Made by a program: the position numbers and the translations under genes. The notes under the pieces were generated by a model. It saw nothing but the letters and a program-made list of their open reading frames with translations, did no database searches and was not told the origin of the DNA. A DNA stretch of 63,868 nucleotides, the filler included, from Reclinomonas americana ATCC 50394 (Eukaryota): the NCBI GenBank assembly GCA_048213135.1. It is 8 parts of 3 records of this genome, joined end to end, with 100 filler letters (N's around TTAATTAATTAA, not from the genome) between each part and the next. Parts side by side here need not be neighbours in the genome. Positions count along the whole stretch, not along the records: positions 57,208 to 59,961 come from PS015051.1; 7 more parts are not named here. One strand, written 5' to 3'. This document shows, in pieces, positions 8,036 to 62,840 of the stretch. Position 1 is the stretch's first letter, and every line of letters starts with the position of its first letter.

Positions 8036-8593
8036 CTGCAAGCTGTGATTGAGAAGAAGAAGAAGAAGAAGAAGAAGAAGAAGAAGAGATAGAGAAAGAA
8101 GAAGGAGAAGAAGACGAAGAAGAAGNNNNNNNNNNNNNNNNNNNNNNNNNNNNNNNNNNNNNNNNNNNNNNNNNNNNNNNNNNNNNNNNNNNNNNNNNNN
8201 NNNNNNNNNNNNNNNNNNNNNNNNNNNNNNNNNNNNNNNNNNNNNNNNNNNNNNNNNNNNNNNNNNNNNNNNNNNNNNNNNNNNNNNNNNNNNNNNNNNN
8301 NNNNNNNNNNNNNNNNNNNNNNNNNNNNNNNNNNNNNNNNNNNNNNNNNNNNNNNNNNNNNNNNNNNNNNNNNNNNNNNNNNNNNNNNNNNNNNNNNNNN
8401 NNNNNNNNNNNNNNNNNNNNNNNNNNNNNNNNNNNNNNNNNNNNNNNNNNNNNNNNNNNNNNNNNNNNNNNNNNNNNNNNNNNNNNNNNNNNNNNNNNNN
8501 NNNNNNNNNNNNNNNNNNNNNNNNNNNNNNNNNNNNNNNNNNNNNNNNNNNNNNNNNNNNNNNNNNNNNNNNNNNNNNNNNNNNNNNNNNNNC

Positions 8594-11900: not shown

Positions 11901-11957
<57 letters not shown>

Positions 11958-14260: not shown

Positions 14261-14292
<32 letters not shown>

Positions 14293-18147: not shown

Positions 18148-18229
18148 TCTGCGTCGATCAACGCGGTGAGACGCACACGCACAGCAAAATTGGAAGACAC
18201 GCACACACACACACAAACAACAACACAAA

Positions 18230-33635: not shown

Positions 33636-33670
<35 letters not shown>

Positions 33671-34699: not shown

Positions 34700-34762
<63 letters not shown>

Positions 34763-35753
34763 ACACGAGACACATTTGCATTCTCGACAAGAGTACCGCT
34801 TCTCAAGGAAACAGCAATAAAAACACACTCTCTCTCTCCCTGCCTCCCTCTCCCTTCCCCGACTGCTTTCTCCCTTTCCCTCATCACTCACATCCTTGCG
34901 TCGCAGCCGCTCATTAATATCATCATCGATGCGCGCAAACCGCTCCTGCGCCTCCTTCTGGAAGCCCTTGAACTTGGCGTCCACCTTCTCCGTCTCGCGC
35001 GTCTGCAGCTTCAAGTTGCTCTCCGTCTCCTGCAACTTGGCCGCCAACTCACGATTTTGGTTCTCCAACTCGTGCGCTCGCAGCGTGTCGCCACCGCGGT
35101 GCTTGCGGAAGGCATTCAGCTCGTGCGTCATGTCTGTGCCACTCAGTCAATGATAACGAAAGAAACAAAGACTCTTTTCCACACACACACACACCTATCG
35201 CGCGCTTCTCCGCAGCCGCCACTTGCTGCTTCAGCTCGTCGTTCTCCTTGCGCACGTCATCCAGCGACCATGTGATCGTGTTGATGCGCTCCTCTAGACG
35301 ACCGACCGTGGTCGCACCCTCCTCCAGACGCTCCTTCAGCACGTGATTCTCCTGCTCGAGTGCTGCGCGCTTTTCCACAATCTGCGAGCAAAAAAAGGGA
35401 GCACGATGATGAGCAGCATGAAAATGAGAGCAAGGAAGGGACAGGACAACCTCATGAATATCACGGAAATGAGACGAGACATCTCTCTCCCACACTCTCA
35501 GAACAGAACACGCCAAACCATCAGTTTCTCTCATACAGTCAGAGAACACAGTCCAGACATTCTCTCGTGAACACAGACCAAATATTCTCTCATTCTCACA
35601 CTGTACCATCGCAAGCCAACAAAGATCGCAGAAACGCACAGACACATCAATGACGTTTAACACAAACGCACTCCTCCTTCCCTTCTCTGCTTCAGTGAAA
35701 CCCACACATAATAACACACACACACACGCACACACAACAAGATATCCTCGCTA

Positions 35754-35838
<85 letters not shown>

Positions 35839-35841
35839 GAA

Positions 35842-35886
<45 letters not shown>

Positions 35887-38800
35887 GAGAGAGAAGAAGA
35901 AGAGAGANNNNNNNNNNNNNNNNNNNNNNNNNNNNNNNNNNNNNNNNNNNNNNNNNNNNNNNNNNNNNNNNNNNNNNNNNNNNNNNNNNNNNNNNNNNNN
36001 NNNNNNNNNNNNNNNNNNNNNNNNNNNNNNNNNNNNNNNNNNNNNNNNNNNNNNNNNNNNNNNNNNNNNNNNNNNNNNNNNNNNNNNNNNNNNNNNNNNN
36101 NNNNNNNNNNNNNNNNNNNNNNNNNNNNNNNNNNNNNNNNNNNNNNNNNNNNNNNNNNNNNNNNNNNNNNNNNNNNNNNNNNNNNNNNNNNNNNNNNNNN
36201 NNNNNNNNNNNNNNNNNNNNNNNNNNNNNNNNNNNNNNNNNNNNNNNNNNNNNNNNNNNNNNNNNNNNNNNNNNNNNNNNNNNNNNNNNNNNNNNNNNNN
36301 NNNNNNNNNNNNNNNNNNNNNNNNNNNNNNNNNNNNNNNNNNNNNNNNNNNNNNNNNNNNNNNNNNNNNNNNNNNNNNNNNNNNNNNNNNNNNNNNNNNN
36401 NNNNNNNNNNNNNNNNNNNNNNNNNNNNNNNNNNNNNNNNNNNNNNNNNNNNNNNNNNNNNNNNNNNNNNNNNNNNNNNNNNNNNNNNNNNNNNNNNNNN
36501 NNNNNNNNNNNNNNNNNNNNNNNNNNNNNNNNNNNNNNNNNNNNNNNNNNNNNNNNNNNNNNNNNNNNNNNNNNNNNNNNNNNNNNNNNNNNNNNNNNNN
36601 NNNNNNNNNNNNNNNNNNNNNNNNNNNNNNNNNNNNNNNNNNNNNNNNNNNNNNNNNNNNNNNNNNNNNNNNNNNNNNNNNNNNNNNNNNNNNNNNNNNN
36701 NNNNNNNNNNNNNNNNNNNNNNNNNNNNNNNNNNNNNNNNNNNNNNNNNNNNNNNNNNNNNNNNNNNNNNNNNNNNNNNNNNNNNNNNNNNNNNNNNNNN
36801 NNNNNNNNNNNNNNNNNNNNNNNNNNNNNNNNNNNNNNNNNNNNNNNNNNNNNNNNNNNNNNNNNNNNNNNNNNNNNNNNNNNNNNNNNNNNNNNNNNAC
36901 GGTGCTCCGTGGCCTCGCTGTTCAGCCGATCCAAATCCTCCTGCTGCTTGCCCGCCTTGGTGGCGGTGCGGTCGCGCTCGCGGGTGACCTTGGTGAGGTC
37001 GGCCTCCAGCGTGCGCGCACGCTCTCGCAGCTTGACAAGCTCCTGCTCCATCGAGTCGGCACGAGCACGCAGCTCCTCCGCCTCCTTCTCCACCGTGGCG
37101 CGGCGACGCTTGGCGACGCCCAGCTCGCGCTGCATGTTGGCAATGCGCGTGCGCGCATCCTCCAACTCGGCCTCGGCGTCCACCAGGCGCTGACGCACCG
37201 AGGTGTACTCGTGCTCCAGCATGCCGTGCCGTGAACTCGCCGTGCTCAACTCGCGCTTGGTGAGACCGAGACGACCGCGCAGCTTGCTCTGCTCCACCTC
37301 CTGCGAGGCCTTGGTCTCGCGCAGCCGGTCGGCCTCGGCCTGCGCCGATTCGTACATGGTGCGCAACTCAATGAGGGTGGCGCGGTCCTCTTGCATGGCG
37401 CGCATCAAGTCGCTCTCGTTGGCGCGCGACTGTGCCAGTTGCGCCTCGAGAGTGGCCAGACGCTGCGCCGAGTCGTCGAGGGTGGTGCGCGTCTCCTGCA
37501 AAAAACGAAGAAAGGTGGTGTGAGGCGCAAAGGAACATCACTGTATGATACACAGAGTTGTCACCGCACCTCGGTGTGAATAATCAGCGTCTGCTTCGCC
37601 GCTCCCTCGTGCATCAACTCGGTCTCCAACTGCCTGTTGGTGGCCGATTCCTGCTGGAACGCCAGCTCCAGCTGTCGATTCTGCGCCAGCACGTCCTCCA
37701 AGCGCTTCACCAGACCGTCGGCACGCTCACGATCGGCCTCGGCAACCAATTGCAATCGACCTACACCAGCACAGGTTAATCATCCAAAGTAAACCTCCTA
37801 TTCCACAAAACACACACGGACCTCGCTCCTCACGTGCGCCGACCAACTCCGTCTCCAACGCCACCACCTGCTGTCGTGCCTTCTCCACATCACTGGTCAA
37901 CTCGGCAATGCGGCTGCGCTCCTCCGTCAGCTGATTGCGCATGCGCGACACGGACGCATCGGCCGTAATCTTGGCGTCCGTCAGCGACTCCACCTGCTCC
38001 TTCAGCTCCTCCACCTGCATACGCAGAGCCTCGCGCTGGCGCTTGTCGGCCTCCAACTGCTCGCTCTGCTGGCGCACCTGCGCACCGGCCTCGCCGAGCG
38101 TCGACGCGTGCTTGATCACCAACTCACGCTTGTCGACCAGCTCCAAGTGCTGCTGATTCAGCTCATCGGTCATTCGCGCCACATCGGCCTCCAGTCGCTG
38201 AATGCGCTCGGCATCGGCGCGTTGCTGGTGCTCGGCATCGGCACGCGCCTGTTCCACCTCAGCCTTTAGCCGTGCACACTGGTCATTCAGAAGGACGACC
38301 TCCGGAGCCGACTGCGTTGCTTGCGAGCGAATCAGCGTAATCTCAGCCGCCAGTGCGTCTCTCTCCGCCGCCAACTTGCGAATGCGACCGTCGCTCTCCG
38401 CCGCCTGATCCTCGCGCTTCACAAACTCGTGCTGCCAGCAAGTCACAGGTGAGTCTGTGCTACCTCCCACCACCCTCTCTCTCTTTCCATCTCCCNNNNN
38501 NNNNNNNNNNNNNNNNNNNNNNNNNNNNNNNNNNNNNNNNNNNNNNNNNNNNNNNNNNNNNNNNNNNNNNNNNNNNNNNNNNNNNNNNNNNNNNNNNNNN
38601 NNNNNNNNNNNNNNNNNNNNNNNNNNNNNNNNNNNNNNNNNNNNNNNNNNNNNNNNNNNNNNNNNNNNNNNNNNNNNNNNNNNNNNNNNNNNNNNNNNNN
38701 NNNNNNNNNNNNNNNNNNNNNNNNNNNNNNNNNNNNNNNNNNNNNNNNNNNNNNNNNNNNNNNNNNNNNNNNNNNNNNNNNNNNNNNNNNNNNNNNNNNN

Positions 38801-41800
38801 NNNNNNNNNNNNNNNNNNNNNNNNNNNNNNNNNNNNNNNNNNNNNNNNNNNNNNNNNNNNNNNNNNNNNNNNNNNNNNNNNNNNNNNNNNNNNNNNNNNN
38901 NNNNNNNNNNNNNNNNNNNNNNNNNNNNNNNNNNNNNNNNNNNNNNNNNNNNNNNNNNNNNNNNNNNNNNNNNNNNNNNNNNNNNNNNNNNNNCCGCTCA
39001 CCTGCAACTCGCCGTCCAGCTTGCGCAGCTCGGCGTGCTGCTTCACCAACTCCTGCTCCAGACCAGCCATGCGCTGGCGTGCACTGTCGAGTGCCGCCTG
39101 CGCACTGTCGCGCTGCCGCTTGGCCTCTCGCAAATCCTGCTCCAACACAATCGTGTTGGTCTTGCGATCGTCGGGGCCACTCGACAACGCCGACAGTTCG
39201 CCCTCCAGCTCCTTGTTGCGCCGCCGCACCGCCTCGTTCTCGTGGCGAATCTCGCCCAGCGCGCTCTCGTGAGCCGCCAGCGCCTCCCGCAGCTCATTCA
39301 CTTCGCTCTCCGCCGCCGCATGCTGCGACTGCTCCTGCAACAGTGCCGCGTGCAACTCCTCCGCCTGCGTCCGCGCCTCGTGGACCGCCGATCGGTGCTC
39401 CTCCTGTGTCGTCTCCATGGCCGCGATGCGCTCGCGAGCGCGACGCAGTGCAGCCTCGGACTGCTCGAGCTGCGCACGGACTTGCTCCACATCGGCCTTG
39501 CCGGCCTGCAACGAGGCCTCCTGCCGCTCAATCAGCACCGCCTCCAGCTCGGCAATNNNNNNNNNNNNNNNNNNNNTCGCGACTGGTGAGCGTCGTACTC
39601 GGTCTCCAGCGCCTCAATGCGGCGACGAGCCACCGCCAAGTCGTCCTCCAAACCGGCCACATGCATCGACTGGTGCTCGCTCTGCTCCGTCAACTCGTGC
39701 TCACGCTGCGTCATGTCTAGCAGCTCCTGCTGCACCGTCAACAGCGTGGCCTGCACCGACTCGCGCGCCGCACCCGACTCGAACAGCTGCTGCTGTAGTT
39801 CGCCAATGCGCGACTCGTAGGCCTGCGCCAGCAGTGCCACCGAGGCCTTGTCGCTGCTGTCGGTGGCGGCGGTGGCCTGCTCCAGATGCGAGCGCGTCTC
39901 GTGCAACTCGTCAGCCAGTCGCGCCGCCTCCGCCCGCGACGCATCGGCGTCGGCCTGCAGCGCGTTCACCTGTTGTCGCAAATTCGACAACTCGTGCAGC
40001 TGCGAATCAATCGTCGAGTCGCGGGCGCGCAGTGACTCGGCGTTCTCGCGTGCGGCATTCTGCGCCTGTTCCCGCTGATCGCGCAACTCGGATTGCAGCT
40101 GTTGATTTGGGGGGAAGGAGGGATGTAACAAGAGAGCATGAGATAATTGCAGCCAAAGGAACTCAAGCATCGCCCTCTGTCATACCTTGTTCTTCTGATC
40201 GCGCAGCTGCTCCACCGTCTCCATCATCGACTGCAGGTCGCCACGAAGCACAGTGAGCTCGGCCGCTTGCGAGTTGAGCAGCGAGTCCTTTTGGCGCATC
40301 ACCGAGTCGCGATCGTACGCATCGGTGACGGCGCGGCTTGAATTCTCACGCTCGCGACTCAATTGCGCCTCGTAGTCGGTCACCAGAGCCGCCATCTCGC
40401 CCTTCAGCGACTTGATGTTGGCAGTCAGATCCGACACTTGCACGCGCAAAGTGTTGTTGTCCTCGTTGTAGCGATCCGACTCCAAACGCAGCACGCGCAG
40501 CTCCTGCTGCACCGCATTCAGTTCACCGGCGGCCGGTGCGTGACGACCCGTCAGCGTCTCCAGCTGCTTCTCCAAGTCGTTGATGCGCTCCTGCAGTGCC
40601 GCCGAGTCGGCACCGGACTCTTGGAGGACGCGATTCTCCTCGCGGATCTCCTCCAGTTGCGACTCCAGACGCGCTCTTTCCTGCTCGAGTGCCTGCGTGA
40701 TGTGTGAGTACATCAGCTAATGAAAAGAAGAGACACACAACTCTAGCTCTCCTCGTCTCTCCTCTTACGCACAAATTCTCTCTCTATTCATCCCTCTCTC
40801 TGTCTGCCTCTCTCTTTCTCCCTCTCTCTCTCACACACGCTCTCTCTTTTCATCCCACTCTCCCTCCCTCTGTATGTGTGCGTGTGTCGCACCTCCACTT
40901 GCTGCTCCAACTCATAGATGCGCTGCTCGAGGAAGGCGGTGCGCGAGTTGGTATCCGACCGGCTGTCGATCCAGTAGTTGGGCACGGGGCAGTTGCGAAT
41001 GCGCTGCGCCCGTGAGGCATACACCAGATTGTTGTGCGTCTCCGAGGCCTGCTCCGGGTCGGCGCCCACACACGTCACCATCAGCGTGCGGCAATTGCCA
41101 CCGAACGAGTGGTGCAGGAGGGAGGTGAGTTTTGAGTCGCGGTACGGGATCTGTGCCGGCTGCACGTTGCCGCCCTGCGCCAGTGCCAGAATGACGCGGG
41201 AGAGCACGAGAAGGTCCTTGTTGTTGCGGCTGTGAGAGGAGCCTGTGGAAGGGGGGAAGGGGGAAGGGGAGAAGGGGGAGGGAGAAGGTGAGGGAGAAGA
41301 GAAGGAGGAAGTGGAAAAGGAGAAGAGAAGGGGGAAGAGCAAGGGGGGAAGAGCAAGGGGGGAAGAGCAAGGGGAGAGGAGACGAAGGGGGGAGAGACGA
41401 ACGGTNNNNNNNNNNNNNNNNNNNNAGAGAGAGGAGAGAGAGGAGAGCAAGGGGAAGAGCAAGGGAGAGGAGCAAGGGGGAGAGCAACGGTGGAAGAGCG
41501 AAGAGAGGACGAGCAAGGGCGAGAGCAAAGGGGGACGAGCAAGGAGGAACAGCAAGGAGGAACAGCAAGGGGGAGGAGCAAGGGGAAAGAGCAAGGGGGG
41601 AACAGCAAGGGGGAAGAGCGAAGTGAAGACGAGCAGGGGCGAGAGCAAAGGGGGAAGAGCAAAGGGGGAAGAGCAAAGGGGGAAGAGCAACGGGGGAAGA
41701 GCAAAGGGGGAAGAGCAAAGGGGGAAGAGCAAAGGGGGAAAAGCAAAGGGGGAAGAGCAAAGGGGGAAGAGCAAAGGGGGAAGAGCAAAGGGGGAAAAGC

Positions 41801-44415
41801 AAAGCGGGAAGAGCAAAGGGGGAAGAGCAAACGGGAAGAGCATGGGAGAAGAGCGAAGGGGGAAGAGCAGAGTACAAGCATAACACTTGAGACCGCATTT
41901 CACCATCCTCGCTTTCGTGGTCTCTTCCCCCCAGTGCTCTTCCCTTCTCCCCATCCCCTAGCTCTTCCTTCCCCCATGGAGAGGTAGATCGAGAGAAAGT
42001 CACTTCGACGAGTAGAANNNNNNNNNNNNNNNNNNNNNNNNNNNNNNNNNNNNNNNNNNNNTTAATTAATTAANNNNNNNNNNNNNNNNNNNNNNNNNNN
42101 NNNNNNNNNNNNNNNNNCGTTTCGAAACATCCAACATGATTCTCTTTCCTCTCCACCCTTCCCCTATTCTCCCCCGTTATTCACCTGCCAGATCCACAAA
42201 ATGGAACTTGGAGTACGTCGCCCGTCGATCACCCATCGAGCGCACACGCAACGACACCGTGGCCACGAAATGCGACTGCGCCAGCACCGCCTGCTCAATC
42301 TCGGGCGTGGGCAACCCACGTGCCGCACGCTTCGCATGATCGTGCCTGCAGCGTGCAAACGAGCCAAACAGCAAATCCACCGCCGAAACCGCGTCATGCA
42401 CCTGCCGTTCGGTGATTCCCTCGGCGAAGAACCCGACCGACAGCGATCCACGAATGCGCAACGCCTGCTGCCTCGCCACCGGCTTGCTCGACGCACGACT
42501 TGCAAACTGCGGCGACGACACAGGCGAGGTGGCCGACAGCGGCGACGTGGCCGACTCATTCCCACTCGTCGACGACGACGTTGGCGACGTGCCAGCAGCT
42601 CCCTTTGCACGCACAGGCGATTGCGCTGCAGCTCCCAACGATCCCAGCAACACATCCTCCATGCTCTCCGGATGNNNNNNNNNNNNNNNNNNNNNNNNNN
42701 NNNNNNNNNNNNNNNNNNNNNNNNNNNNNNNNNNNNNNNNNNNNNNNNNNNNNNNNNNNNNNNNNNNNNNNNNNNNNNNNNNNNNNNNNNNNNNNNNNNN
42801 NNNNNNNNNNNNNNNNNNNNNNNNNNNNNNNNNNNNNNNNNNNNNNNNNNNNNNNNNNNNNNNNNNNNNNNNNNNNNNNNNNNNNNNNNNNNNNNNNNNN
42901 NNNNNNNNNNNNNNNNNNNNNNNNNNNNNNNNNNNNNNNNNNNNNNNNNNNNNNNNNNNNNNNNNNNNNNNNNNNNNNNNNNNNNNNNNNNNNNNNNNNN
43001 NNNNNNNNNNNNNNNNNNNNNNNNNNNNNNNNNNNNNNNNNNNNNNNNNNNNNNNNNNNNNNNNNNNNNNNNNNNNNNNNNNNNNNNNNNNNNNNNNNNN
43101 NNNNNNNNNNNNNNNNNNNNNNNNNNNNNNNNNNNNNNNNNNNNNNNNNNNNNNNNNNNNNNNNNNNNNNNNNNNNNNNNNNNNNNNNNNNNNNNNNNNN
43201 NNNNNNNNNNNNNNNNNNNNNNNNNNNNNNNNNNNNNNNNNNNNNNNNNNNNNNNNNNNNNNNNNNNNNNNNNNNNNNNNNNNNNNNNNNNNNNNNNNNN
43301 NNNNNNNNNNNNNNNNNNNNNNNNNNNNNNNNNNNNNNNNNNNNNNNNNNNNNNNNNNNNNNNNNNNNNNNNNNNNNNNNNNNNNNNNNNNNNNNNNNNN
43401 NNNNNNNNNNNNNNNNNNNNNNNNNNNNNNNNNNNNNNNNNNNNNNNNNNNNNNNNNNNNNNNNNNNNNNNNNNNNNNNNNNNNNNNNNNNNNNNNNNNN
43501 NNNNNNNNNNNNNNNNNNNNNNNNNNNNNNNNNNNNNNNNNNNNNNNNNNNNNNNNNNNNNNNNNNNNNNNNNNNNNNNNNNNCAAGAAGAGCCCACTGA
43601 CGCAGATCTCGAACAGCTGCGGCGGAATGTCCTTCACGTGGGAAACAACGAGTGAGCGACCAGGGAGGGAATCAGCACTTGCCACGCGCGCGAACTGCGA
43701 CTACCTCCACGATATCAAAGAGGCGCTGCAAGACGCGCGGGAACATGCCCGCATCCGGACCCTCCGGCGCACCAAACAGCGTGTACTAATGCCACACAGA
43801 CACACGTCATGACATGACACGACACGCAGAGACAAGTCGTCACATTGTGCGCAACTGTCTTGCCCGTGCGCTCATGTCCATACGAGAACAACGTGCAGTT
43901 CTTGCCCGCGGCAAAGTCCACCACCATCGGCTCCACACATCGATGGAAGAAGGCGCTCTGTGCGTGTGCGTGCACGCGTGCGTGTCATTTTCGTTCATGT
44001 CCACCATAGACGCACTCTCTTTCTGTCTCTTTCTCTCTCTCTTACAAACCTGTGAGGCATTCTCGCCAAAGACATAGGCAAAGCGGAAGCTCTCGTCATT
44101 CGGCACCGAGACGTGCACCTGAAAGCGGGAAAGACGGTTAAATTTTCAGTTGCACACTTTGGTCGGCACTCTCGTTATGTCACTCTCTTTCTCATTCACC
44201 TCTGAGGGCGATAACACATGCACGTGCGAGTTCACAGGCGACGAGGCAGGTGCCACGCGAACAGCAACATCAAATTCGTTGGTGGCCACTGATTGAGTCG
44301 GAGAACCTCCTGAGGATGCAGGCGAGGAGTGCGATGTTGTCACTGGCAGGGCCAGAGGAGGCACAGTGGCGGCCGCTGACGCAGAGTCAGTGTCGCCAGT
44401 GCTGCCTGCGCTCAT
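32729..44415 (-). CDS. Kinesin-like protein A: divergent N-terminal motor, very long coiled coil and Ser/Pro/Arg-rich tail
   Basis: FDVAVRVAP, FRFAYVFGENASQ, NCTLFSYGHERTGKT|YTLFG, SKFHFVDLAG and IPYRDSKLTSLLHHSFGGNCRTLMVTCV...ETHNNLVYASRAQRIRNCP. Coiled-coil exons at 34023-40690. Stop at 32731-32729. Confidence 0.88.
41330..41870. repeat. Intronic minisatellite, 14-15 nt unit (gggggaagagcaaa)n
   Basis: Tandem units visible inside a kinesin A intron. Confidence 0.9.
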
Positions 44416-44830: not shown

Positions 44831-47800
44831 ATGGCCGACGACAGTCGTGCCTTTTCCGTAATCGCGCGAGTTGCGTCACGAAAAAAACACACACATACAT
44901 TGTTCGATCTCAACGGTGCTCTCACTCACGCGCACACTCTCTCTCACACACACACGCAGGTTCTCCCATGGCCTCCACACACAGCAAGCGCCACAGAGCC
45001 AACGTTACTCACACACTCACACCGCTCACGGATCACACTCACACACAATCGCTCACACGCTTTTCTCTTCACAGAATCTCTGTCATCTCTGACTCATCGC
45101 TGATCTTGCAAGCACCGCCTGCGCCACCCGACTCGCCCTCATCGTCTACAGTAGCACCACCACCCGCACCCTCATCGACCACGTACAGATTCGATCACGT
45201 GTTTACAGCTTCGTCATCATTGTCATCGTCGATTGGTCCACTGGCAAGAGCGTTTGTCGATCGCGGCGAGCACGCTTCACTGCTGCTGACAGGCTCCAGA
45301 AAGAGCGGGAAAACACGGGCGGCGTTTGGAGTCGATCCGTGGACGTCGCAAGGCGATCGGGAGAGCGATCGCGAGGAGAGCGCTGTGCTCAGTGTCCTCT
45401 CGCATGTGTGTCAGCGATTGGAGGTGCGGTTACTGCTCTGCCTCCTGTGTGTATGTACGTGCTCTTATGTAGGTCTGTAGGCGGTGCATGGAGCTGATGT
45501 TGATTCGTACTCGTTGCGGTGGTCGCTCATGTGGCTCAATCCCGGTGCGCGCTCAAAATGCTTCATTCAGTCGCTCTTGGCGTGTGTGCGAGCTGATCGC
45601 TCCTTGCAGATTCGTCGGTGGAGGATCTGCTGGCGATGCCGCTCGGTGGACTGCCGAGTGGACCGGCCCCGGCGCAGTCGTCGTCTGCGAGTCATTCGCG
45701 ATCGGCGAGTGGAAGTCGACCGCAGCAGTTGCGTCTCGTGTCGTCGATCATCGCCTTCTCTCTATCCCTTCTCACACACACGGATGTCGTGCAGTGTGCG
45801 CGGCTCGAGTTCCAACTCGGGATCGTTCTCGTCGCAGACGTCGTCGACGGCATTGGCTGGAGCGCCAATGCCGTCGACTCTGGCGGTGATGAGTGGGGCG
45901 TCGCTGGGCAGTCTGGTCGATGCGCTGCCGGTGCCGCGCATTCGTGGGGACACCGAGGGCGGTTTTTATGTGGAGAATCTGTCGAGTCGACTTGTGCGTG
46001 ACGCGCGCTCGACGGCCATTTGTGCGGCGCGTCGGCTGTACGCCTCGTTGTTGGCCGATATGCGGCGGCAATCGTCGCAGTTGCGCTCGCACGTGTTTTT
46101 CACGCTGCAGCTGCGCCAGCGCGCAGTTCGCGGTCGACCTGCCACCGATTCCACGTTCCATGTGGTGGATCTGGCGGGTCACGGGGAGGGGCAGGGGCAG
46201 GATCGCAAGGACTTGCTGGTGTTGAAGAGAGTAATCATGGCGTTGAATCGAGGTAAGGACAAGTGGGGGGAAAGGGGGTGGCGTGAGGGATTGAGCGGTG
46301 CTGACGACGATACAGGCGATCCGTCTGTGCCGTACCGCGATTCAAAACTCACCTCCCTTCTTTACAATGCTATTGGTGGTCACTGTCGCACAGTTGCGTG
46401 AAGGAGGGGAAGGAGGAGAATGACGCGGCGGAGGGGGAAATACTGCTTTGTAGTGAGCAATATTGCGAGTGATTTTGGTCATGCGAGGGGTGTTTTTCCT
46501 TTCATGTTTCACTGCACGATTCCTCACTTGTCCCCTTGCTGTTGCCCGGGTCTCTTGCAACCCATGTCTCTCTCGCTTTTGCTCAAAGGGTTGTTCATGT
46601 GTCTTCTCGGCTATCCCCCTCGCGATTCTCGTCATTGGTCTCTGTCCATTCTCCATTATCCTTGTTGTCTTTCTTTCGCTGTTGCTGTTGCTGTAACCCA
46701 ATCTCTTCCTCCTTCGCTCTCTCTTTCTCTCTCTCTCCCTCTAAATTTTACACTTTCCCTTTGTGTTCTCCCTGAAAGGGTTGTTCTTGTGTCTAAGTCT
46801 CTTACTCTGATACTCTCTTACCTCTGCCGCTGATCTGTTCCTCTTTGAGTCATACTCCATTTCTTTTTTGTCTTACTTTCCCTCGCAGCTGCAATAAGCC
46901 ACTCTCGTCGGGCTTCGTGCGTTTATGCCATCGTATCTCTCCCTTCCTCCTCTGACTCGCTCTTCGTGCATCAGCTTCTCGGCTATCCTCACCCACTCTT
47001 CCGGATTCACTCCCTTCACTCTCATTCTCCTCCGGTCTATCCGCTCGCCCTTTCATGTCCTCCTCCCCCTCGCTTCCTTCCCTTCCTTCTTCTTCTTCTT
47101 CTTCTTCTTCTTCTTGTTCTTGTTCTTTTTCTTTTTCCCCTCCTCCTCTCCTCTCCTCCCCTCCTCACCACCTCTTCTTCCTCCTCCTTCCCCTTTTCCC
47201 CCTCTCCTTGCCCTTCCACCTCCCTCTCATTCACCCTTCCCCTTCTACGCAGGTGCTGATGTTGTGCCTGTCGCCGGACCCCAATCTTTACCGTGAAACA
47301 CAACTGGCACTCGGGCAGGCCGTGTCAGCAGCCGAGATCCGCAACACGCCAACGCCCATGCTGTGGGACGACACGGTGGTGGACGTATTCGCAGTCGCAC
47401 GTCTGGAACGGCAGTGTGGCGAGCTGGAGGCGCTGAACGAGGATCTCATGAGTCAACGCGACGTTCTGGAACTGCAGCTGGCAGCGCAGCTGAGACCAGA
47501 CCGACGCGCCTCCACCGCCGACATTACCGATCCGNNNNNNNNNNNNNNNNNNNNNNNNNNNNNNNNNNNNNNNNNNNNTTAATTAATTAANNNNNNNNNN
47601 NNNNNNNNNNNNNNNNNNNNNNNNNNNNNNNNNNACGCCGCTGATTGAGATGCGCCGGAAAATGTCGGCAGTGGAAGGTGCGCTCCAATTGTGTGCCTTC
47701 TTTATCGACAACAGCACTCACCTCTCTCTCTCTCTCTCTCTGATTCAGGTGAGGTACAAGTGGCGGCCGAGTTGGCACGCAAGCAGGGCGAAAAGGAGAT

Positions 47801-50067
47801 TATCCGCTTGCAGAGCGAGAACCGAGTCAAGCAGAAGCAACTGCAGGCGGCACATCTTGCGCGGTCGGAGATGGAGAACGAGCTGAAGAGCGTGCAGGCA
47901 CGATGCGCGGAGCTGGCGGCCAAGAACGAAGCATTGCAGGTGCAGGTCAATGATCTGAAAACGCAAGCACTGCCGGTGCGTTTGTCACGTGCATGTGCTA
48001 GATACTCCACATGCGTTTCGCTCACTGTCTTTCTTCAATCGCCAGCCATTTTCTCCAATGGCGAGCCCGCTGTCGTTGAGTCCCTCCTCCGCCGACACCA
48101 ATGCCAAGGTGCAGCTGGAGCAGGAGCGGAGTGAGTGGCGCAATCGTGAGCGGTCGATGAAGGAGCAGCTGGTGGAGTTTGAGCGTCGTCTGGAATCGGC
48201 GGCGGCACTGGAGGACATGTTTGAGCAGGCGGCCGCACATCGGCAGCGCCTGACGACAGAGAACACGGCGTTGGAGTTGCGGGTGAAGCAGCGTGACGGC
48301 GAGATTGCGCAGTTGAGAGTGCAGCTGGAACGTGTACAGCAGCTGTACCAGGAGGCGAGGACGGCAGCCGCCGAGCAGCTTCAGCAGCAGCAGCAACCGG
48401 TGATGAATGGACATCACACGCCCGACGCCGACAAGGAGAGATTGCGCGCCCTGGAGCAGACTGTGGCCGAGCTGCGCGCTCAGCTGGCCCGCGGTCCCAC
48501 TCCCACGGGCGGGGTCGACGTGCAGCGAGCGCATGCGCGTGCCACCGTGGCGGAGGAGTCGTTGCGCAAGCAAAAGGAGCTGTACGAACAGCTGCGCGTG
48601 CGTCTGCGTGTGGCCGAGTCGGAGGCGCAGGGCGCGAAGCGCGAGGCGGCTGCTGCGTGCCGTGAGTTGGACATGGAACGCGACATGCATCGCGGGACCA
48701 GGGAGCGCCTGGCCAGCAGTGAGGCGCTGGTGCGCCGGCTGGAGACGCGNNNNNNNNNNNNNNNNNNNNNNNNNNNNNNNNNNNNNNNNNNNNNNNNNNN
48801 NNNNNNNNNNNNNNNNNNNNNNNNNNNNNNNNNNNNNNNNNNNNNNNNNNNNNNNNNNNNNNNNNNNNNNNNNNNNNNNNNNNNNNNNNNNNNNNNNNNN
48901 NNNNNNNNNNNNNNNNNNNNNNNNNNNNNNNNNNNNNNNNNNNNNNNNNNNNNNNNNNNNNNNNNNNNNNNNNNNNNNNNNNNNNNNNNNNNNNNNNNNN
49001 NNNNNNNNNNNNNNNNNNNNNNNNNNNNNNNNNNNNNNNNNNNNNNNNNNNNNNNNNNNNNNNNNNNNNNNNNNNNNNNNNNNNNNNNNNNNNNNNNNNN
49101 NNNNNNNNNNNNNNNNNNNNNNNNNNNNNNNNNNNNNNNNNNNNNNNNNNNNNNNNNNNNNNNNNNNNNNNNNNNNNNNNNNNNNNNNNNNNNNNNNNNN
49201 NNNNNNNNNNNNNNNNNNNNNNNNNNNNNNNNNNNNNNNNNNNNNNNNNNNNNNNNNNNNNNNNNNNNNNNNNNNNNNNNNNNNNNNNNNNNNNNNNNNN
49301 NNNNNNNNNNNNNNNNNNNNNNNNNNNNNNNNNNNNNNNNNNNNNNNNNNNNNNNNNNNNNNNNNNNNNNNNNNNNNNNNNNNNNNNNNNNNNNNNNNNN
49401 NNNNNNNNNNNNNNNNNNNNNNNNNNNNNNNNNNNNNNNNNNNNNNNNNNNNNNNNNNNNNNNNNNNNCGTGCACGAACTCGAACCGAATCAGCATCTGC
49501 TTGAAGCGCAGCTTGAAGCCTGCCGCGCCAACGTGGAGGAAATGGCGGGGAGGTTGGAGGCCTTGCACGAGGCCGGCGCCGGGCGGCACGTGGTGGTGCG
49601 AGTCGTTGCGTTGTTGTTAATGGTGCTTCGATATGATGGTGTGATTCTTTGCTCACTGTCCGAGCAGGCGGCAAACGGGGACGCGGATCACTACGGCGCC
49701 GATTCCAAGAATCAGCGCGTTGCCACGCTGGAGCAGGAGCTGGCGGCGAGCCGATTAGAAGTGGCAGAAGTGCAGCGACAGCTCAAGCATGCGTTGAATG
49801 AGTTTGAGCAGCGCAGTTGCGTCGTGTGCACGCGCGGACTCGGAGGCGCTGTGCTAACTCTCCTGCGCAGTGCTCTATTATCGGGAGGCGGGTGAGAGGG
49901 CGAGGCAGGCGGAGGAGAAACTGGCGGCGTTGAAGGAGGCGTTTGTGGCACAGGGCCGCACACTGCGCTCGCAAAAGAGACATTTACAGGATGTGGTGGA
50001 GGCCAAGGACCGCGAGCTGGCCATGCAGCACCCGTCGCCACCGAAACTACATGCGTCGAGAAAGTAG
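44831..50067 (+). CDS. Kinesin-like protein B, paralogue of A: divergent motor plus coiled coil
   Basis: MADDSRAFSVIAR|VLP, YRFDHVF, LLLTGSRKSGKT, GGFYVENL, LRSHVFFTLQL, FHVVDLAG and VPYRDSKLTSLLYNAIGGHCRT|VLMLCLSP. TAG at 50065-50067. Confidence 0.88.
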
Positions 50068-50124: not shown

Positions 50125-53042
<2,918 letters not shown>

Positions 53043-54235: not shown

Positions 54236-57042
54236 AACGAATCCACCAACGTGATGGAGTCGGAAGAGAACGAATTGGTCCGCGGCCGCCTCGTGCAGAT
54301 CGACGAGGACTCGCTTCGTGATTTCGACGACTCGGTGAGTTGCTCTTCCATTTTCGCCGCCTCCTCCTCACTCTTGCCTCACTTGTGCCACTCTCCAGGC
54401 GATTGTGTTGACTGGAACTGTGGCCAGCGAGGAGGTGGCGAGAGCAATTGCTTCGAGAGGCGTCACGCTGCGGTGCGTAATCTGGTAGTAACATATCGAG
54501 TGTGCATGAGCATGTCTTTGTGTCACATCCGATTGTGAGTCTCCTCTCGCGTTTCCGACTATGTGAGCGCATGTGTGTGATGCTGCGCGGTTCTGTGTTG
54601 CCTCAATGCCTGCGAATCTGTACGATGTGTATGTCTACGTGTACGTTGTATGCGACAACTTGTGAAGCAGTGTGTGAATATGTGTGCATCTTGCACATGT
54701 GTATGATATCATGAACGCGTTGCATTCTGTGTGCTTTCTCGGCGAGTCACTTCGCTTCATGACTGTCAATGACAGTATGAGCATGTGACAGTATTTTTTG
54801 TGCACGTGTGCATGACTGTGTGTGGATATTGCGTGTGCTTGCTGCGATTCTCATCTTGCACACCCGTGACTACTCTCTTTACCTCTTCCCTCTTCTCTTC
54901 CCCGTTTTCCCTCTTCTCTCCCCCGTATTCCCCCTCCCTCTCCCTCTCCCCCTCCCTCTCCCTCTCCCATCTCCCTCTCCCTCTCCCTCCCCCCTCTTCC
55001 TCTCCCTCACCACCTCCCTCCAGCGCCGTCCACCGCCTGTACGCCGTCGCCGACTCGATCGACTCGCTCGTAGAACAATTGCAACGCGACACGACCTTTG
55101 TTGCGTCCGTTCCCCCGTCACCGCACCCTATCCCACCACCTCACCTCCTTCCCCCCTTTCTCCCAGGCCAACGGCATGCCCGACGACGACGAACCCTCGG
55201 ACGGCGGCTACTCCCTCACCTTCGACTCATTTCACCGGTACTTCACCAAGGAGGACGTGGCGCGCCTCTACGAGCAATTCGAACCCGTCTACTTCCCCGG
55301 CCGCGCCAACCTCAAGTCACCGCGTCATCGTTTCTCGGTGCTGATTGACGGCCCGCGCTCCCGCTACTACTTTTGCAAGTTGATTGTGGAGAGTGACCGG
55401 CAATCTGTCGTCAAGTTCTCGTTGAAGAAGCGGCCATACATTGGCACGACCAGCATGGACGCGGAGCTGGCGCTTCTCATGTCCATCTCGGGACTGGTGC
55501 GACCGAATTACCTGGTGCTGGATCCGTTTGTCGGCACTGGGAGTGTGTTGATTGCGGCCGCGCATCACGGCGCCATGGTGATGGGGGCGGAGTTGGATGG
55601 TCGTGTGTTGAAGGGCACTGTGGGCGAGCGCAAGGGTCGCTCCATTCTCGACAATCATCGCCATGTTGCGTGCGAGGGGGGATAAGGGCAAGAGCTACCC
55701 CTACTGCTTTCTCCATCTCCGCTTCCCTTCTTTTCCCCCTACTCCTTACGCCTTCCTCTTCCCCTGCTTGACCCCCGTTCTACTTCTCCTTTCGCCTTCT
55801 TCTTTTCATTTCCCAAGTCCCTTCCCTCATCCTTTCGCCACTCTCTTTCCTCCCTCGCTTGCCCTCTCCATTCTACATCTCCTTTCGCCGTCCCTTCCCT
55901 CGTTTCCTTTCGCCACTCACAGTCTTCTCCCACTTGCCCTCCCTTTCCTCTCCCTTTCCTCTCCATTCTACATCTCCTTTCGCCTTCCTCTCTTTCCTCT
56001 CCCTTTTCACCTCTCTCTTTTCCTTTCGCCGCTCTCTTTCCTCCCCGCTTGCCCTCTCCCTTTCCTCTCCTCCCTTTCCTCTCCCTTTCCTCTCCCCACT
56101 TTCCTTTCGCCACTCTCTTTCCTCCCTGCTTGCCCTCTCCATTCTACATCATCTTCTTTCGCCTTCCCCCTTTTCCTCTCCCCTTTCCCTTCCCCTCTTT
56201 TCCTTTCGCCACTCTCATTTCTTGCCACGTGCGCAGTACGGTCTGCCACCACCGCTGGACCTGCTTGTCAACGACGCCTCGCAATGCATGTGGCGGCAGC
56301 ATTCGTGTGAGATGTTTGATGCGATTGTCACCGATCCACCGTACGGTGTGCGTGAAATGTCGAAAAAGGTGGGCAAGAAGGGCCGCGAGATCGAGGATTC
56401 TGTGCGCGATACCTTGTTGCGTCAGGCCCCCTTTCCTCCCCCCACCCCCTCTCCCCCATCGTTCGCTAATTGCCACGCAGCTGGAAGTCCGGCAAGCACA
56501 TTCCCCAGAAGGTCATGTACACGCTGGACAGAATACTTGAGGATCTGCTGACGCTCGGCGCCCGCACATTGCGTGTCGGCGGCCGTCTCGTGTTCTGGGT
56601 GCCGTCCACCCCCGAGTTCCACATCAATATGCTGCCGGAGCACGAGGGCATGCGTCTCGTCTCCGTGTGCGAGCAGTCGCTTTCGGAGCGCTACGGCAGA
56701 CACTTGGTGACCATGGAGAAGACCAAGGCGTGGGATGAGGTGGTGCGTGGTGCGCGGTGGCGACTGTCTTTTCTTGTTTGACTGTGAATCCTCAAACTGC
56801 TCTGGCCACAGGAACACCGCGGCGCCACATGGGTGGGCGACGAGCACGAAACAAGGCAGTTGTTGCTCACCAAGTTCCGCGAAGCGTACTATCTGCCAGT
56901 GCGCGCCGCTCGTCGCGAGTTTCACCAGAAGCGCAAGGAGGCGTATTTTGCACACGTGGCGGCGTCGGCGGCCGCGAAGGCGGCGGCAGCAGAGGCGGGC
57001 GATGCCAGTGGTTCGGGAGACAAGGTTGCTGGATCGGAATGA
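54236..57042 (+). CDS. TRMT11: tRNA (guanine-10-N2)-methyltransferase TRMT11/Trm11, 5'-partial
   Basis: FSLKKRPYIGTTSMDAELALLM, LVLDPFVGTGSVL, FDAIVTDPPYGVRE, LRVGGRLVFWVP and CEQSLSERYGRHLVTMEK. Confidence 0.93.
55820..56220. repeat. Intronic pyrimidine-rich degenerate tandem repeat (tttcgccactctctttcctccc...gcttgccctctcc units)
   Basis: Recurring blocks visible in a TRMT11 intron. Confidence 0.75.
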
Positions 57043-57651
57043 AGGCGCTCTCACCATCATAGACGTGGGGGAAGGGAGGGGATGGGGAGGAGGAAAGGGA
57101 GAGGGGGNNNNNNNNNNNNNNNNNNNNNNNNNNNNNNNNNNNNNNNNNNNNTTAATTAATTAANNNNNNNNNNNNNNNNNNNNNNNNNNNNNNNNNNNNN
57201 NNNNNNNTCTCTCGTTTGTGCTCGCTTAGTGTCTAGATCCATATTCTCGCGTACTCCTGAGCTCTTTCCCTATTTGTCGATCACGTTCTCTGACGATTCT
57301 CCCCCCTCTCTCTCTCACTGCCTTAATCCATCTTCTCGTGTACTCCTGCGCTCTGTACTGTTTCGCCCATCCCGGTCTTCACCTCGCTCTAATTCTTTAG
57401 TATACTCGCCCCGTGATGTTGTCTCTGTCACCTCCACTTTCTTCGATTTCTCTCCCCCGCCTCCCTCGCTCCTTCGTTCCCTCCCTCCCTTTCCTCCCTT
57501 TCCCTCCCTTTTCCGTGTATCCTCTCCTCTCCACTCCTCCCTCTTCACTCCTCCACCCTCCCTCCCTCCCTCCCTCCCTCCCTCTCCCTTTTGCCCTCCC
57601 TCCCGTCCCTCTTGCCCTCCCATTGCCCTCACCTCCCTCTCCCTCCACCAG

Positions 57652-59633
57652 GCCGACCGCACCCTCCAACGCGCCTTTCAAGGCTTCGTCACCGCCGACA
57701 ACGACCGGTGGTACAAGGAGCGCGAGGTGGCCGAGGCAGAGCCATTGCGCAAGAAGCACCGCATGGAGCAGCGCGACGACACGGACGCGCCGGACAGGAA
57801 GCGACGCAAGTCGACGAGTGCCAAGCTGCTGCAGCTGTCGCAAGTGCACGTGCTGCCGCACAGCAGCTGTGTGTCGGCGCTCGCGTTTGGGTCGCAGTCG
57901 GATCGGTTGTTTGCGTGTGGCAAGGTGGGCGGAGGGGGGCAAGGGGGAAAGGGGGAAGGGAGAAGGGGAAAGAGAGGGGAAGGGGAAAGGCGGGATGAGA
58001 GGAAATGGGCAACGAAGGAAGGAAGAGAAGAAGAATGAGTGTGAGTGACAAATGTGGGACGGTGGTTAAGGGAGTGGAGACAAAGGATGTAGGGGGGAGA
58101 AGCAAACGAGTTGGGGTCGGCGAAGGGTAACGTTGAGAAAGGGAGAAATTAAGGGAAAGGTGGGAGAAGTGAACAAAGGATCTGCAGTGTGAGAGAGTGG
58201 CGGACATTGAGAAAGGGAGGGAAAACGGATAGCAAAAGGAGAGAGCATTGATCTCGGAGTGAGAGAATGGGGGTCCGTGGAGAATGGTGAAGGCAGCAGG
58301 AGAGAGCACGGAATTCGGAGGAGGAGCAAGTGTGAGATGGTGGGAGACAAGGGAAGCCGGAAGGAGAAGGGGGAAAGGGCTCAATGCTGACAAGTGAAGC
58401 AGTGAGGAGAGGGCTACTGACCTGGAGTTAGAGAATGGAGAAAGTGAGAATGATTTGAGAGCGATAAGAGTTGAGCAAGTGATTAGGAGGGAGAGAGTGG
58501 GAGGCAGTAGGAAAGGGAGGCGGGGAATAGCGGGGGGGTGGGGGGGGGGGGAGCGTGTCCATTGGAGAGGGAGAAGAAAGATGAAAGGCGGGAGGATATG
58601 GCAAGCAATTCAGAGTGAGAATGACGGATAGTGGGAAATGGAGGAGAAGACAGTGGAGAGCGGAAGAGAGCAAGGGATCGGAGTGAGAGAATGGATGACA
58701 ACAAGTGAGCAGGGAGGAGAAGGTGGAAAGGCTGGATGATGGACAGTGGAAAGGCAATGGAAAGAAGTGAAGCAGTGAGGAGAGAGCAAAGGACCTGGAG
58801 CGAGAGAATGGGTGACAGCGGAAATGGGAAAAAGAAGCGGAAGGATGGGAGTTGAGCAAGGGAGTGGGCGTGAGAGAGTGGGAGACAAGGAAAGCAGGGA
58901 GGAATGAGTGACAGGGAGAGCAGAAATATCTGAGAGAGATGCGACGTGATCTTTCCCTCCCATCTAATCCTTTTCCTCTTTCACAGGGCCTCGTCCGCAT
59001 CTGGGACGTCTCTGACCGCACCGCCAAATCCCCGCTGGTCGAATTCAGCGCCCTGGACGACGCATACATTCGCGCATGCAGCTTGATCGGCAACGACGAG
59101 CAAGTGGTGATGTGTGGCGAATCGTCGCTGATCACCGTGTTTGATCTGAGCGGGGTGCGTGCATAGTAATTCATCCCCCTATCTCTCTCCTCCCTGCTCA
59201 CCCTCTGTGGTGCAGTCACGACCAACGCTCCTTCACCGCATGCAAGCCAAGTCGGCGTACCAGTACGGGCTGGTGCTGAGCGAGGACGGTCGGTATGCGC
59301 ACAGCTGCAGCGAGTCGGAAATCGAAATGTGGGACTTGCACAATGGGACATGCGTGCGGTGAGTACGGGAGAGAGAAAGGCGCAGGCGATGACACTTTCC
59401 CCTGACTTGTGTGTGCGATGATGCAGCACCACGCCGTGTGCCGGCGAATCGACATCGTGCATCGACACGACCAATGACGGTCGGTACGTGGTGACGGGTG
59501 GCCTGGACGCGCAGATTCGTGTGTGGGATGTGGGTACGGGACGCGAGGTGCTGTCGCAGACGCTGCCGGACAAGATCTTTACGCTGGCGGTGTGCCCGGC
59601 GTTCCGCACGGATGGGAGTTGGATTGCGGCGGG
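57652..59633 (+). CDS. TLE: Groucho/TLE-like WD40 co-repressor, partial at both ends
   Basis: ACGK|GLVRIWDVS...KSP...DAYIRAC...GESSLITVFDL...WDLHNGTCVR...SCIDTTNDG...TGGLDAQIRVWD...GREV...IFTLAVCP...WIAAG is colinear with the TLE WD domain. Basic NLS-like RKRRK upstream. Confidence 0.82.
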
Positions 59634-60107
59634 GTGAGTCGATGGGGAATGTGAAGGGGAAAGAGTGATTCAAAGGCTTGATTAAGAAGGACAGATTGGA
59701 AAGTGTGTTATGGGAAGAGTTGACAAGGGGCTATGGGGAAGGTATTACAGGTGGGGAACGGGTGAGTGGGAGGGATGACCAGGAAGCGTTGACGGCAAGG
59801 AGATGATGGGGAAGGGTTGATATAGAAGGGTCGATAGGAATGTTTTGAGGGGATGAGGTGATTGAAAAGCGATAACTGGGAGATGTGAGGTGAAGGGTTT
59901 GCGGGAAACGGATGATACATTAGGGATTATCTCTCTGTGTTTTTATGTCTCTCTCTCTCTTNNNNNNNNNNNNNNNNNNNNNNNNNNNNNNNNNNNNNNN
60001 NNNNNTTAATTAATTAANNNNNNNNNNNNNNNNNNNNNNNNNNNNNNNNNNNNNNNNNNNNACGAACGACGAGACGAACGAACGAACGAACGACGAACGA
60101 CGACGAC

Positions 60108-60282: not shown

Positions 60283-62840
60283 CACCAAGAATGTGTGCAC
60301 ATCGTCGGCCTTGGGCAACATGAGCATCTTAGAGATGTAGCTGTACGGAATGCGGGTGTTGTACGTCGGACCGTGCAGCTTCATGACACCCTCGAACAGC
60401 TCAATGTCGTAGCGGCCTCTGCAAGACAGCAATGAGTCGCGCGATGATGAATATTGGATGGTGAGTGCACCAACCTTGGCACCAGCATGGACAACTTCTG
60501 GAAGACGGCGGCCGCATCACCAGCACTGGTGACGTCGGTCATGGCGAGAATGCGCTTGACCAGTTGCTCGTGGCCTGCATGCCCGAATACAATGAGACTG
60601 ATGGTAAGAGAGACAGTGGGAAGAAAAGAGAGGGAAGAGAGAGGGAAACAGCGCGAGTGGAAGACACACATAGAGAGAGAGAGAAAGCAACGCGCAAAAT
60701 AAACAGAACTGCTACAACTTCGACCACAATTGCACCTCTCCACTCGTATCTGCCATATCACCATCCCAACACACTGCAAGCCCTCCCAACAAGCTTATTA
60801 TCCAGAACCCAAAACACATCACCTCCAAACAAACACAAACAAAAAGACACACCCTTCCCTCATATTCCACATCTTCGCATTTCCCGCTTCCCCACACTCT
60901 TCCCCTCAACCTCTCCTTTCCTTCCATATCCTCACCTGCCGCGGCCGCCGACCGCACCACCTCCCCATCCTCGTTCTCCTCCTCCTCCTCCGCCGCCCCA
61001 TCAGCCGCCGCCGTCCCATCCGAGCCCAACGCCGGCACGTGCAGACGCACCTCGACCAGACCCTCGGCCATCTGCTCACCAATTACACACAGTCAATCTC
61101 TGCGCCCTTCATCTCCCACCCTTCCCCCTGCTTCCCGCAACATCCTGATCCCCCGAAAAATCCATCAGCACCTCGTTCTTGCCCTGCGCCACGCACTGCG
61201 TAATGTCGGCCAGGTGCACCTCCAGCGTCGGCTTGTCGTCGACCATAAAGACGAGATTCTTGCCCTCGAACTCCACATTGCCCCAGTTCTTCCCCGACGT
61301 GCCCAGCGTGCGCTTCTCCATGTTCTCCTTGACCTTCTTCGCGCGCAGATACGACTTGATCGTCTCAAAGTCGTCCTCGCGCAGGTTGAGAAAGTTGAGC
61401 TGCATGTCGGCGCCCATGCGCAGACGCAGGCGACAGTTGCGCGAGAGGCGCGTCCACTCGGCGTCGGTCACCTCGCTGACGGGCAGCGACTTTTTCTCGC
61501 GGTCCTCCTCGGCGGTGTTGCCTTGCGAGCTGGTCCATTCGATTTTGTTGTTGCCGAGGCGGAGGGTGCCGACGCTCTGACAAGGGAAAGGGATTGTAAG
61601 GGAAAGGGATGAGGACAAGGGAAAGAGATGAGGAAAAGGGAAAGGGATGAGGAAAAGGGAAAGGGATGAGGAGAGGGGAAGAGAAAGAGATGAGGAGAGA
61701 AAGAGATGAGGAGAGAAAGAGAGAGCACATTCGGTGTAATCAGCGGCGGCAGTGTGACGACGGTGGGTTCATTGCAGGGCAGAGAGAGATGAAGAGATGA
61801 AGAGGGAAAGAAGGAGAGGATGGGAGCACAAAAGGTCGAAATGCGAGACAACGTCGAGATGCACAAGGCAGAAGAGGAAAAGGATGACGACGAAGGAGGA
61901 GAGTGAAGGGCAGGGGAGGAGGGCACAGAATGCGATCATGTGGTGCAAATAGCAGGTCGAAATGCGTGACAATGTAGAAGAAGAAGGAGAGGAAGAGCAG
62001 GAAAGACAGCGGAAGCGGCGATACAAAGTCGAAATGAAGAGGAAAAGAAGACGAAGAACGAGAGTGAAGGGCAGCGGAAGACAGAAGAGAGAAAGAAGAA
62101 GAACAGAAATGAGAGACACACGACGCAGGAGAAGGAGAGGTGAAAAGGAACGGGTAGAAGAGGAGAGAGAGGAATGCACAGCAGATTTGAAGGCTGAGAA
62201 GGAGACGGGTCACAACGCGAGACAACGCTGAAATGCACAAGGCAGAAGAGGAAAAGGATGACGACTGAGGAGGAGAGTGAAGGGCAGGGGAGAAGGGCAC
62301 AGCAGAATGCGATCGTGGCGCAAGAAGCAGGTCGAGAAAAGGTCGAAATTAAGTAGAAGAGGAAGGAGAGGAAGAGAAGAAGGTCGAGACAAGGTCGAAC
62401 TGCACAGAGTAAGAGAGGAATAAGATGCACGGAGTGTGAGAGAGTGTGAGAGTGAGTGTGAGAGAGAGAGAGAGACAAAGAGCGTGCAAGGAAGAATTCT
62501 CTGACTCACGCAATGCCAGTAAACTTGCACATGAAGAGAGTGTGAGAGAATGAGTGTGTACATGTGTGTGAGAGAAACAGTGTGTGAAAGTGTGTGAGTG
62601 AGCGTCTCTGTCAAAAAGTGCGACATGTCTTTGTTGTCAAGTTCACACTGGAATGACAACACACACACTGACTGACACAAACACACGCACAAAGAGAGAG
62701 ATAGAGCAGTGTGTGCACACTGCATACACACACAGAGAGAGAAAAAAGGAAAACACTCATTATCAAAAAAACGCAACTCGCTCTCTCCGCGCACTCTCCA
62801 AGCACACCACATTATCAAACGTAGTCTTCTCCGCCGCCAT
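60283..62840 (-). CDS. SSRP1: FACT complex subunit SSRP1/Pob3, 3'-partial
   Basis: MAAEKTTFDNV, SGKNWG, GKNEVLMDF, LVEVRLHVP and LVPR|GRYDIELF...LHGPTYNTRIPY...LPKAD. Confidence 0.95.
61843..62336. repeat. Two ~120 bp direct-repeat copies (about 61843-61960 and 62217-62336) in SSRP1 intron 1
   Basis: Shared block atgcacaaggcagaagaggaaaaggatgacgac..aggaggagagtgaagggcagggga. Confidence 0.85.

Follow-up and report, generated by a model that had tools for sequence, protein, structure and literature searches.

Does the stretch of DNA studied here (the window, 63,868 nucleotides at its full length) carry a genuine Groucho/TLE co-repressor gene in a genome that is not an animal's, and if it does, was that gene inherited or acquired? 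The initial annotation had read a Groucho-type gene in four exons, using segments of human TLE1, and had taken it to bear on the origin of Groucho before the animals. We conclude that the locus is probably a Groucho/TLE orthologue native to a protist outside the animals, most plausibly a jakobid, and inherited vertically, and that it would probably encode a motif-docking co-repressor of the kind usual in the family.

In the portions of Copley 2016 (PMC4943189) on which we draw, Groucho orthologues are described from ichthyosporeans, Corallochytrium, Trimastix and Naegleria, and plants are said to have no obvious orthologue. Both Groucho and Tup are argued there to have been present in the eukaryotic ancestor, the prima facie case for Groucho coming from two excavate sequences, with transfer, contamination and tree artefacts left open pending more genomes of free-living organisms. 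A literature search, its coverage short of most subscription journals, turned up no paper describing a jakobid Groucho, and gene tables in supplements could list one; the words Groucho and jakobid co-occur in one paper (PMC7050145), in the accessible text of which Groucho stands only within a reference title.

The gene lies on the forward strand of a 2.75-kb contig bounded on either side by a spacer gap, and is incomplete at both ends. We number residues after TLE1, as the position in PDB chain 1gxr plus 433, which reproduces the published R534, R565, R610, F612, F661 and E677 and ends at 770. Exon 1, the first in view (57652..57924, 91 codons), follows a phase-0 acceptor and encodes a charged linker with two basic clusters and then the start of the propeller (478-504). 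Spliced alignment places an intron of 1062 nt in phase 0 after K504 (57925..58986). Exon 2 (58987..59154; 505-561), recognized both by its PDB match and in a search of representative proteins, bears the equivalents of Y532, R534 and E550; a phase-0 intron of 61 nt after residue 561 (59155..59215) separates it from exon 3 (59216..59358; 562-610), which keeps Y578, and a phase-2 intron of 68 nt inside the R610 codon (59359..59426) leads to exon 4 (59427..59633; 611-675), which keeps L636 and F661 and matches the Pfam WD40 family above its cut-off. Past the last donor the frame runs into a stop, which requires a fourth intron starting at 59634, with a GTGAGT donor in phase 2 in the G675 codon; this intron is seen as a donor only and runs into the downstream gap (59634..59961).

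The four-exon gene of the initial annotation is real. All four exons have AG directly before and GT directly after, and the spliced product reads through 263 codons uninterrupted, the other two frames having six and three stops; spliced alignment to the propeller of a seal TLE2, with splice sites left free, chose the same three complete introns, among them the phase-2 intron that had been remarked on in the codon of a Cys-Val-Arg motif and that falls at R610. Some 200 of the 263 codons are WD40 propeller, colinear with TLE1 478-674 (about 197 of 300 propeller positions). The TLE1 segments cited there occur as printed in PDB 1gxr, and their counterparts here follow the same order, interrupted by three small indels. 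There is no need to postulate overlooked micro-exons, since alignment with TLE runs across each of the three junctions with no gap.

The downstream gap (59962..60061) takes the remainder of the propeller, including the position of E677, two codons beyond the last donor, as well as L702, K718 and L743. As the convergent neighbour SSRP1/POB3 (60298..61576, reverse strand, two exons, Pfam SSrecog, POB3_N and PH1_SSRP1-like) also breaks off there, this gap must either hide about 95 Groucho codons (from E677 onwards) along with the remainder of SSRP1, several kilobases in all, or join pieces that are not adjacent. The last 95 propeller positions were not found elsewhere in the window, where a search for them met only a generic WD40 repeat gene at about 17.1-18.2 kb (Pfam; 17102-18157, reverse strand) and a repeat cross-match to exon 4. 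Upstream, any N-terminal exons, including those for a Q domain, would lie in or beyond the other gap (57108..57207). Pfam gave no match in the window to TLE_N (PF03920; Tup_N is PF08581), and a profile of 15 Q domains run against the six window frames reached a best E of 0.96; the gene's N-terminus is cut by this gap, so a Q domain may lie outside the part in view. Exon 1 matched no Pfam family at E 0.05, and in the ESM Atlas it met weak, mixed clusters of WD40 and PRP4 type, below the recognition threshold. Its two Lys/Arg clusters (57748..57810, forward strand; exon codons 33-37 and 49-53), read directly from the sequence, may be nuclear-localisation-like.

To which WD40 family does the propeller belong? 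Exon 2, the most Groucho-specific of the four, found TLE1 first among seven PDB matches (E 9e-7) when searched alone. Against 1.84 billion representative proteins it had 23 matches, seven of them Groucho-type; three of the seven bear TLE_N, TLE/groucho proteins of a ctenophore, fish and seal are among those with names, and another two are divergent metagenome proteins of short length (P0010 and P0022/P0031). Among the other 16, the seven that were scanned are multi-repeat WD40 or unrelated repeat proteins. Exons 3 and 4 on their own rank TLE1 only 20th of 76 and 16th of 467 PDB matches, and for exon 4 Tup1 (1erj) stands second with a score summed over repeats. Taken singly, then, the exons do not all find TLE best in the PDB. 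With the joined 201 residues, BLASTP returned 30 Groucho-type entries out of 30 at 67-145 bits, against 60 and 64 bits for two Tup entries; P0010 is among the two best matches (144 bits). A profile of P0010, P0022/P0031 and the window exons aligns with TLE1 in a single stretch (278 bits), and a profile built from P0010, P0022, P0031 and the four exons yielded no additional Groucho-like sequence in a word-limited search of 5113 candidate proteins of at most 672 residues. TOPLESS and LEUNIG, which have a LisH-type N-terminus (TOPLESS with two propellers), were absent from the best 60 PDB matches listed.

Phylogeny agrees with the searches. A metagenome scan, from which the best 80 of 432 confirmed stretches gave 79 loci, contributed many animal-type TLE genes, a single divergent Groucho with introns (L075) and a pair of Tup genes (L044:16-1809 and L062:257-1819, on metagenome contigs and with Tup_N above cut-off). 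In a tree of 29 chosen rows (18 animal-type, four divergent, two Tup and five other WD40), the window row falls within the Groucho clade at 100/100, on a stem of 1.86 changes per column from Tup, and in two smaller sets rooted on Tup it stays there, again at 100/100. Forcing it together with the two Tup_N-bearing proteins carries a penalty of 45.7 log-likelihood units (p-AU 0.0003). Fixed differences separate six animal Groucho rows from two Tup rows at 31 columns; the window row is Groucho-type at 16 of these, Tup-type at three and something else at 12. The row is a long branch (1.5-3.4), 32-37% identical to animal TLEs, and the Tup sample consists of two rows. The 18 animal-type rows lie on one side of the Groucho tree at 78/88, unstarred, so the exclusion of the window row from the animals in this tree is weak. 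A scan of viral contigs for Tup motifs found none. The window gene is almost certainly a Groucho/TLE orthologue, as had been proposed; the grouping with Tup that would have spoken against this identity was not recovered.

Is the motif-binding pocket of the animal proteins (TLE1; PDB 1gxr, 2ce8, 2ce9) also present? The window gene keeps Y532, R534, E550, Y578, L636 and F661. In the parts of PMC13308096 used here, TLE1 depends on R534 to bind WRPW and eh1, mutation of this residue abolishing motif binding, and on R565 to bind FBXL14; the R565 equivalent in the window gene is Thr, at a position that varies among animals too. Presumably Y532, E550, Y578 and L636 are further pocket residues of TLE1. 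The first five of the residues kept are common to Tup, so we regard them as necessary for a Groucho assignment rather than diagnostic of one, and the Tyr-Ile-Arg motif to which attention had been drawn is indeed retained but does not discriminate, as Tup proteins carry it too. The published Groucho-versus-Tup diagnostics are Phe at 661 (Tyr in Tup) and Glu at 677 (Leu in Tup), according to the sections of Copley 2016 cited above. The window gene has the former; it falls outside the Tup clade and lacks the Tyr at 661, as well as the Asp-Ile that Tup proteins have before Y578, and resembles Tup1 and Tup11/12 (PDB 1erj) at 25-26% identity and in belonging to a family of seven-bladed WD40 co-repressors.

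There are departures from the animal pattern as well. In exon 3, A576 is replaced by Tyr and C577 by Gln, one residue is deleted near C592-C593, and D595-G596 is changed; in exon 4, G614 is Cys and H615 is Ala, and four residues are inserted after Cys-Pro, an insertion also found in P0010. The Tyr-Gln pair lies beside Y578 and may shift the preference for particular motifs. Naegleria gruberi and Trimastix pyriformis, whose Groucho-clade propellers (Copley 2016, PMC4943189) make them the nearest published comparison in excavate-grade protists, were compared by eye with the alignment as printed there, and our trees do not include them; both have a polar residue rather than Cys at 577, as the window gene does. 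At 661 Naegleria has Leu, unlike the window gene, while Trimastix has Phe, with Tyr at 677. P0010, P0022/P0031 and L075 are 29-34% identical to the window gene. P0010 has Ser at 677, and at 576-577 P0010 and P0031 have Phe-His where the window gene has Tyr-Gln. P0010 and P0022/P0031 are short, divergent Groucho-like proteins with no TLE_N, and have a last-blade Trp like that of the published Naegleria protein.

By analogy with the animal proteins, we lean towards a motif-docking co-repressor role. The protein would be nuclear, imported through the basic clusters just before the propeller, and would not itself bind DNA; the top face of its propeller would dock short hydrophobic motifs of WRPW or eh1 type on DNA-bound transcription factors, and the target genes of those factors would be repressed. 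A Q domain, if there is one, would oligomerise (the family version tetramerises) and recruit silencing factors. Animal-type ligands may nevertheless be absent for an excavate Groucho, since Copley found no WRPW or eh1 motifs on transcription factors of Naegleria or Trimastix in the portions of that paper used here. Three WRPW- or eh1-like strings occur in the window frames, none of them inside the called exons.

The most serious alternative to this role accepts the orthology and alters the function: the gene would be a true but short Groucho orthologue with no Q domain and with a pocket that no longer reads WRPW or eh1, serving as a WD40 adaptor for lineage-specific motifs or partners in the manner of the Q-less Naegleria protein. 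We think this unlikely, although several observations are in its favour. The window row joins P0010 and P0031, neither of which has TLE_N, at 93/93 and 96/93, and it has in common with them an aromatic-polar pair at 576-577 and a Ser at 488; moreover, the Naegleria Groucho has neither TLE_N nor known motif partners in the sections of Copley 2016 (PMC4943189) considered. On the other hand, the six pocket positions that can be seen all resemble those of animals, the three grouped rows are all long branches, two of them of odd composition, so that the grouping may be an artefact, P0010 and P0031 may be incomplete at their N-termini, and the gap upstream of exon 1 leaves room for Q-domain exons.

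The neighbouring genes bear on the identity of the host. Upstream lies TRMT11 (55025..57042, forward strand, 414 codons read), which served as a marker for the host. A fusion of this gene with the Groucho gene, suggested by a phase-0 GT before its stop and the phase-0 acceptor of exon 1, was set aside; TRMT11 has its own stop codon, and a gap lies between the two. Among 507 candidates, 104 matched TRMT11; no match exceeds 60% identity, and no jakobid is named among them. When 24 of the 104 are placed in a tree, the window's TRMT11 falls outside a starred clade of eight animals (96/93) and lies apart from the fungal and plant-alveolate groups too; SSRP1, tried as a second lineage marker, had none of its 174 candidates pass E 1e-10. 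Because its TRMT11 lies outside the starred animal clade, the host is not an animal, and the suspicion of a non-animal genome is borne out. That the host is a jakobid we consider quite likely. The splice sites are of two sorts: three TRMT11 introns, which yield the open 414-codon frame, begin GTTGCGT after a T (55100, 55665 and 56416, forward strand), an SSRP1 exon ends at a similar candidate donor (61141, reverse strand), and each of the four donors of the Groucho gene comes after a G and belongs to the ordinary class, which does not prove where the gene came from. The short introns of the Groucho gene resemble those of TRMT11 in size and acceptors.

Codon use was compared under a model built from the other window genes. 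The Groucho gene (GC3s 0.80) has a synonymous codon score of 0.29, within the leave-one-out range of those genes (0.13-0.41, six genes), and all six animal TLE coding regions examined score from -0.12 to -0.76 under the same model. A GC-rich Tup locus, L062, also fits, at 0.24, and codon use thus excludes animals rather than every other eukaryote as the source.

Intron positions offer a further view of descent, and comparison with animal TLEs had been proposed as a check at the outset. The comparison set consists of 13 intron-bearing loci (12 animal-type and L075, from the best 80 of 432 stretches), not all of which span the whole region, and these have 11 distinct intron sites within 478-675. 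Two introns placed by the spliced aligner are doubtful (568-1 in L032 and 737-1 in L031); 568-1 was left among the 11, which is conservative. Of the four sites in the window gene, 561-0 also occurs in L040 and L075, 610-2 in L032, L041, L043, L077 and L075, and 675-2, seen in the window as a donor only, in L040, L043 and L075, all of these but L075 being animal-type. The fourth, 504-0, is extra relative to the animal genes and occurs in none of the 13 loci, not all of which span the site; conversely, the window gene has no intron at 527-0, where seven of the 13 have one. Sharing at least three of four sites by chance has a probability of 2e-5 if all sites are equally usable, 0.002 if a fifth are and 0.018 if a tenth are; with complete introns alone, two of three shared, the corresponding values are 0.0009, 0.02 and 0.09.

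Since three of its four intron sites match both animal TLE loci and L075, one intron-bearing ancestral gene is favoured over a transfer derived from mRNA, and the shared introns favour vertical descent over contamination or transfer. These introns could predate the split of Groucho and Tup, as the comparison set holds Groucho genes only. L075 (285-2010) is itself a divergent Groucho having both F661 and E677; its four propeller introns (527-0, 561-0, 610-2 and 675-2), three of them in common with the window gene, all occur in animal-type loci as well. It branches first in the Groucho clade of the 29-row tree, and its 5' edge bears a faint resemblance to a Q domain (E 0.02).

It might still be supposed that a contaminating contig, from an animal or some other eukaryote, was joined into the scaffold, or that the gene came by recent transfer from an animal. 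The small size of the contig, with spacer gaps on both sides, would permit such an accident, and the position outside the animals in the Groucho tree is unstarred. We nevertheless find this explanation very unlikely: codon use fits the neighbours and not the animal TLEs, the short introns are like those of TRMT11 in size and acceptors, and the identity to animal TLEs is 32-37%, against mostly 50-90% between seal TLE2 and the animal-type loci.

Decay into a pseudogene or gene fragment is less probable again; the long branch, the one-residue deletion, the loss of the Gly-His pair at 614-615 and the lack of a start or end in view would suit it, but 263 codons run without stop or frameshift between canonical splice sites, with native codon bias (GC3s 0.80) and selectively retained pocket residues, and both breaks coincide with gaps. 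Least credible of all, and largely refuted, is a Tup1-like or generic WD40 protein resembling TLE through repeat similarity, for which the ranking of Tup1 above TLE1 with exon 4 alone, a first strand with His-Ser-Ser as in Tup proteins and the three Tup-type columns of 31 are outweighed by the AU test, the 100/100 Groucho clade, the BLASTP ranking and the shared introns.

If the preferred reading of a native Groucho orthologue is right, what does it say about the origin of the family? What is new here is part of a Groucho orthologue from another deep-branching lineage, together with intron positions shared with animal TLE genes. The bearing on a pre-metazoan origin that had been claimed is upheld insofar as the shared introns and native codon use support ancient descent, but Groucho outside the animals was already described in Copley 2016 (PMC4943189). 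The window gene is known with its genomic introns, and evidence of this kind, from a genomic copy whose codon use is native and whose introns are shared with animals, was missing from that study, so far as the portions used here go. Should the host be a jakobid, it would be a second discoban lineage with Groucho. A jakobid (Discoba) Groucho with three animal-shared introns and an animal-like pocket would imply that the last eukaryotic common ancestor, or an organism close to it, had an intron-bearing Groucho with this pocket, distinct from Tup, and that most lineages have since lost it, a proposition to which we give even chances. The published idea is strengthened rather than overturned, and nothing is yet said about what Groucho regulated before animals. 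If this proposition is true, motif-directed co-repression of the animal kind would become testable in a deep-branching flagellate, in which the Tyr-Gln rim may specify docking motifs of another kind.

The remainder of the window holds features of other kinds. Gaps of 100 bases at 8982, 14527, 42018, 47535, 53699, 57108 and 59962 share a central spacer with stops in six frames, unlike other gaps. Genes appear to continue on the far side of three of them at least (14527, 42018 and 47535), so the joins are probably ordered, their sizes not being fixed. Pfam identified a piece of an ESCO1/2 acetyltransferase (742-879, forward strand), the RNase P subunit Rpp40 (6977-8044, reverse strand) and, below cut-off, a golgin-A5-like piece (52597-52833, reverse strand). 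A fungalysin (peptidase M36) gene with introns and an EGF-like C-terminal part lies at 9767-14824 (reverse strand), and two divergently oriented genes (32765-42593, reverse strand, and 45784-48747, forward strand) each encode a degenerate kinesin motor with long coiled coils after it.
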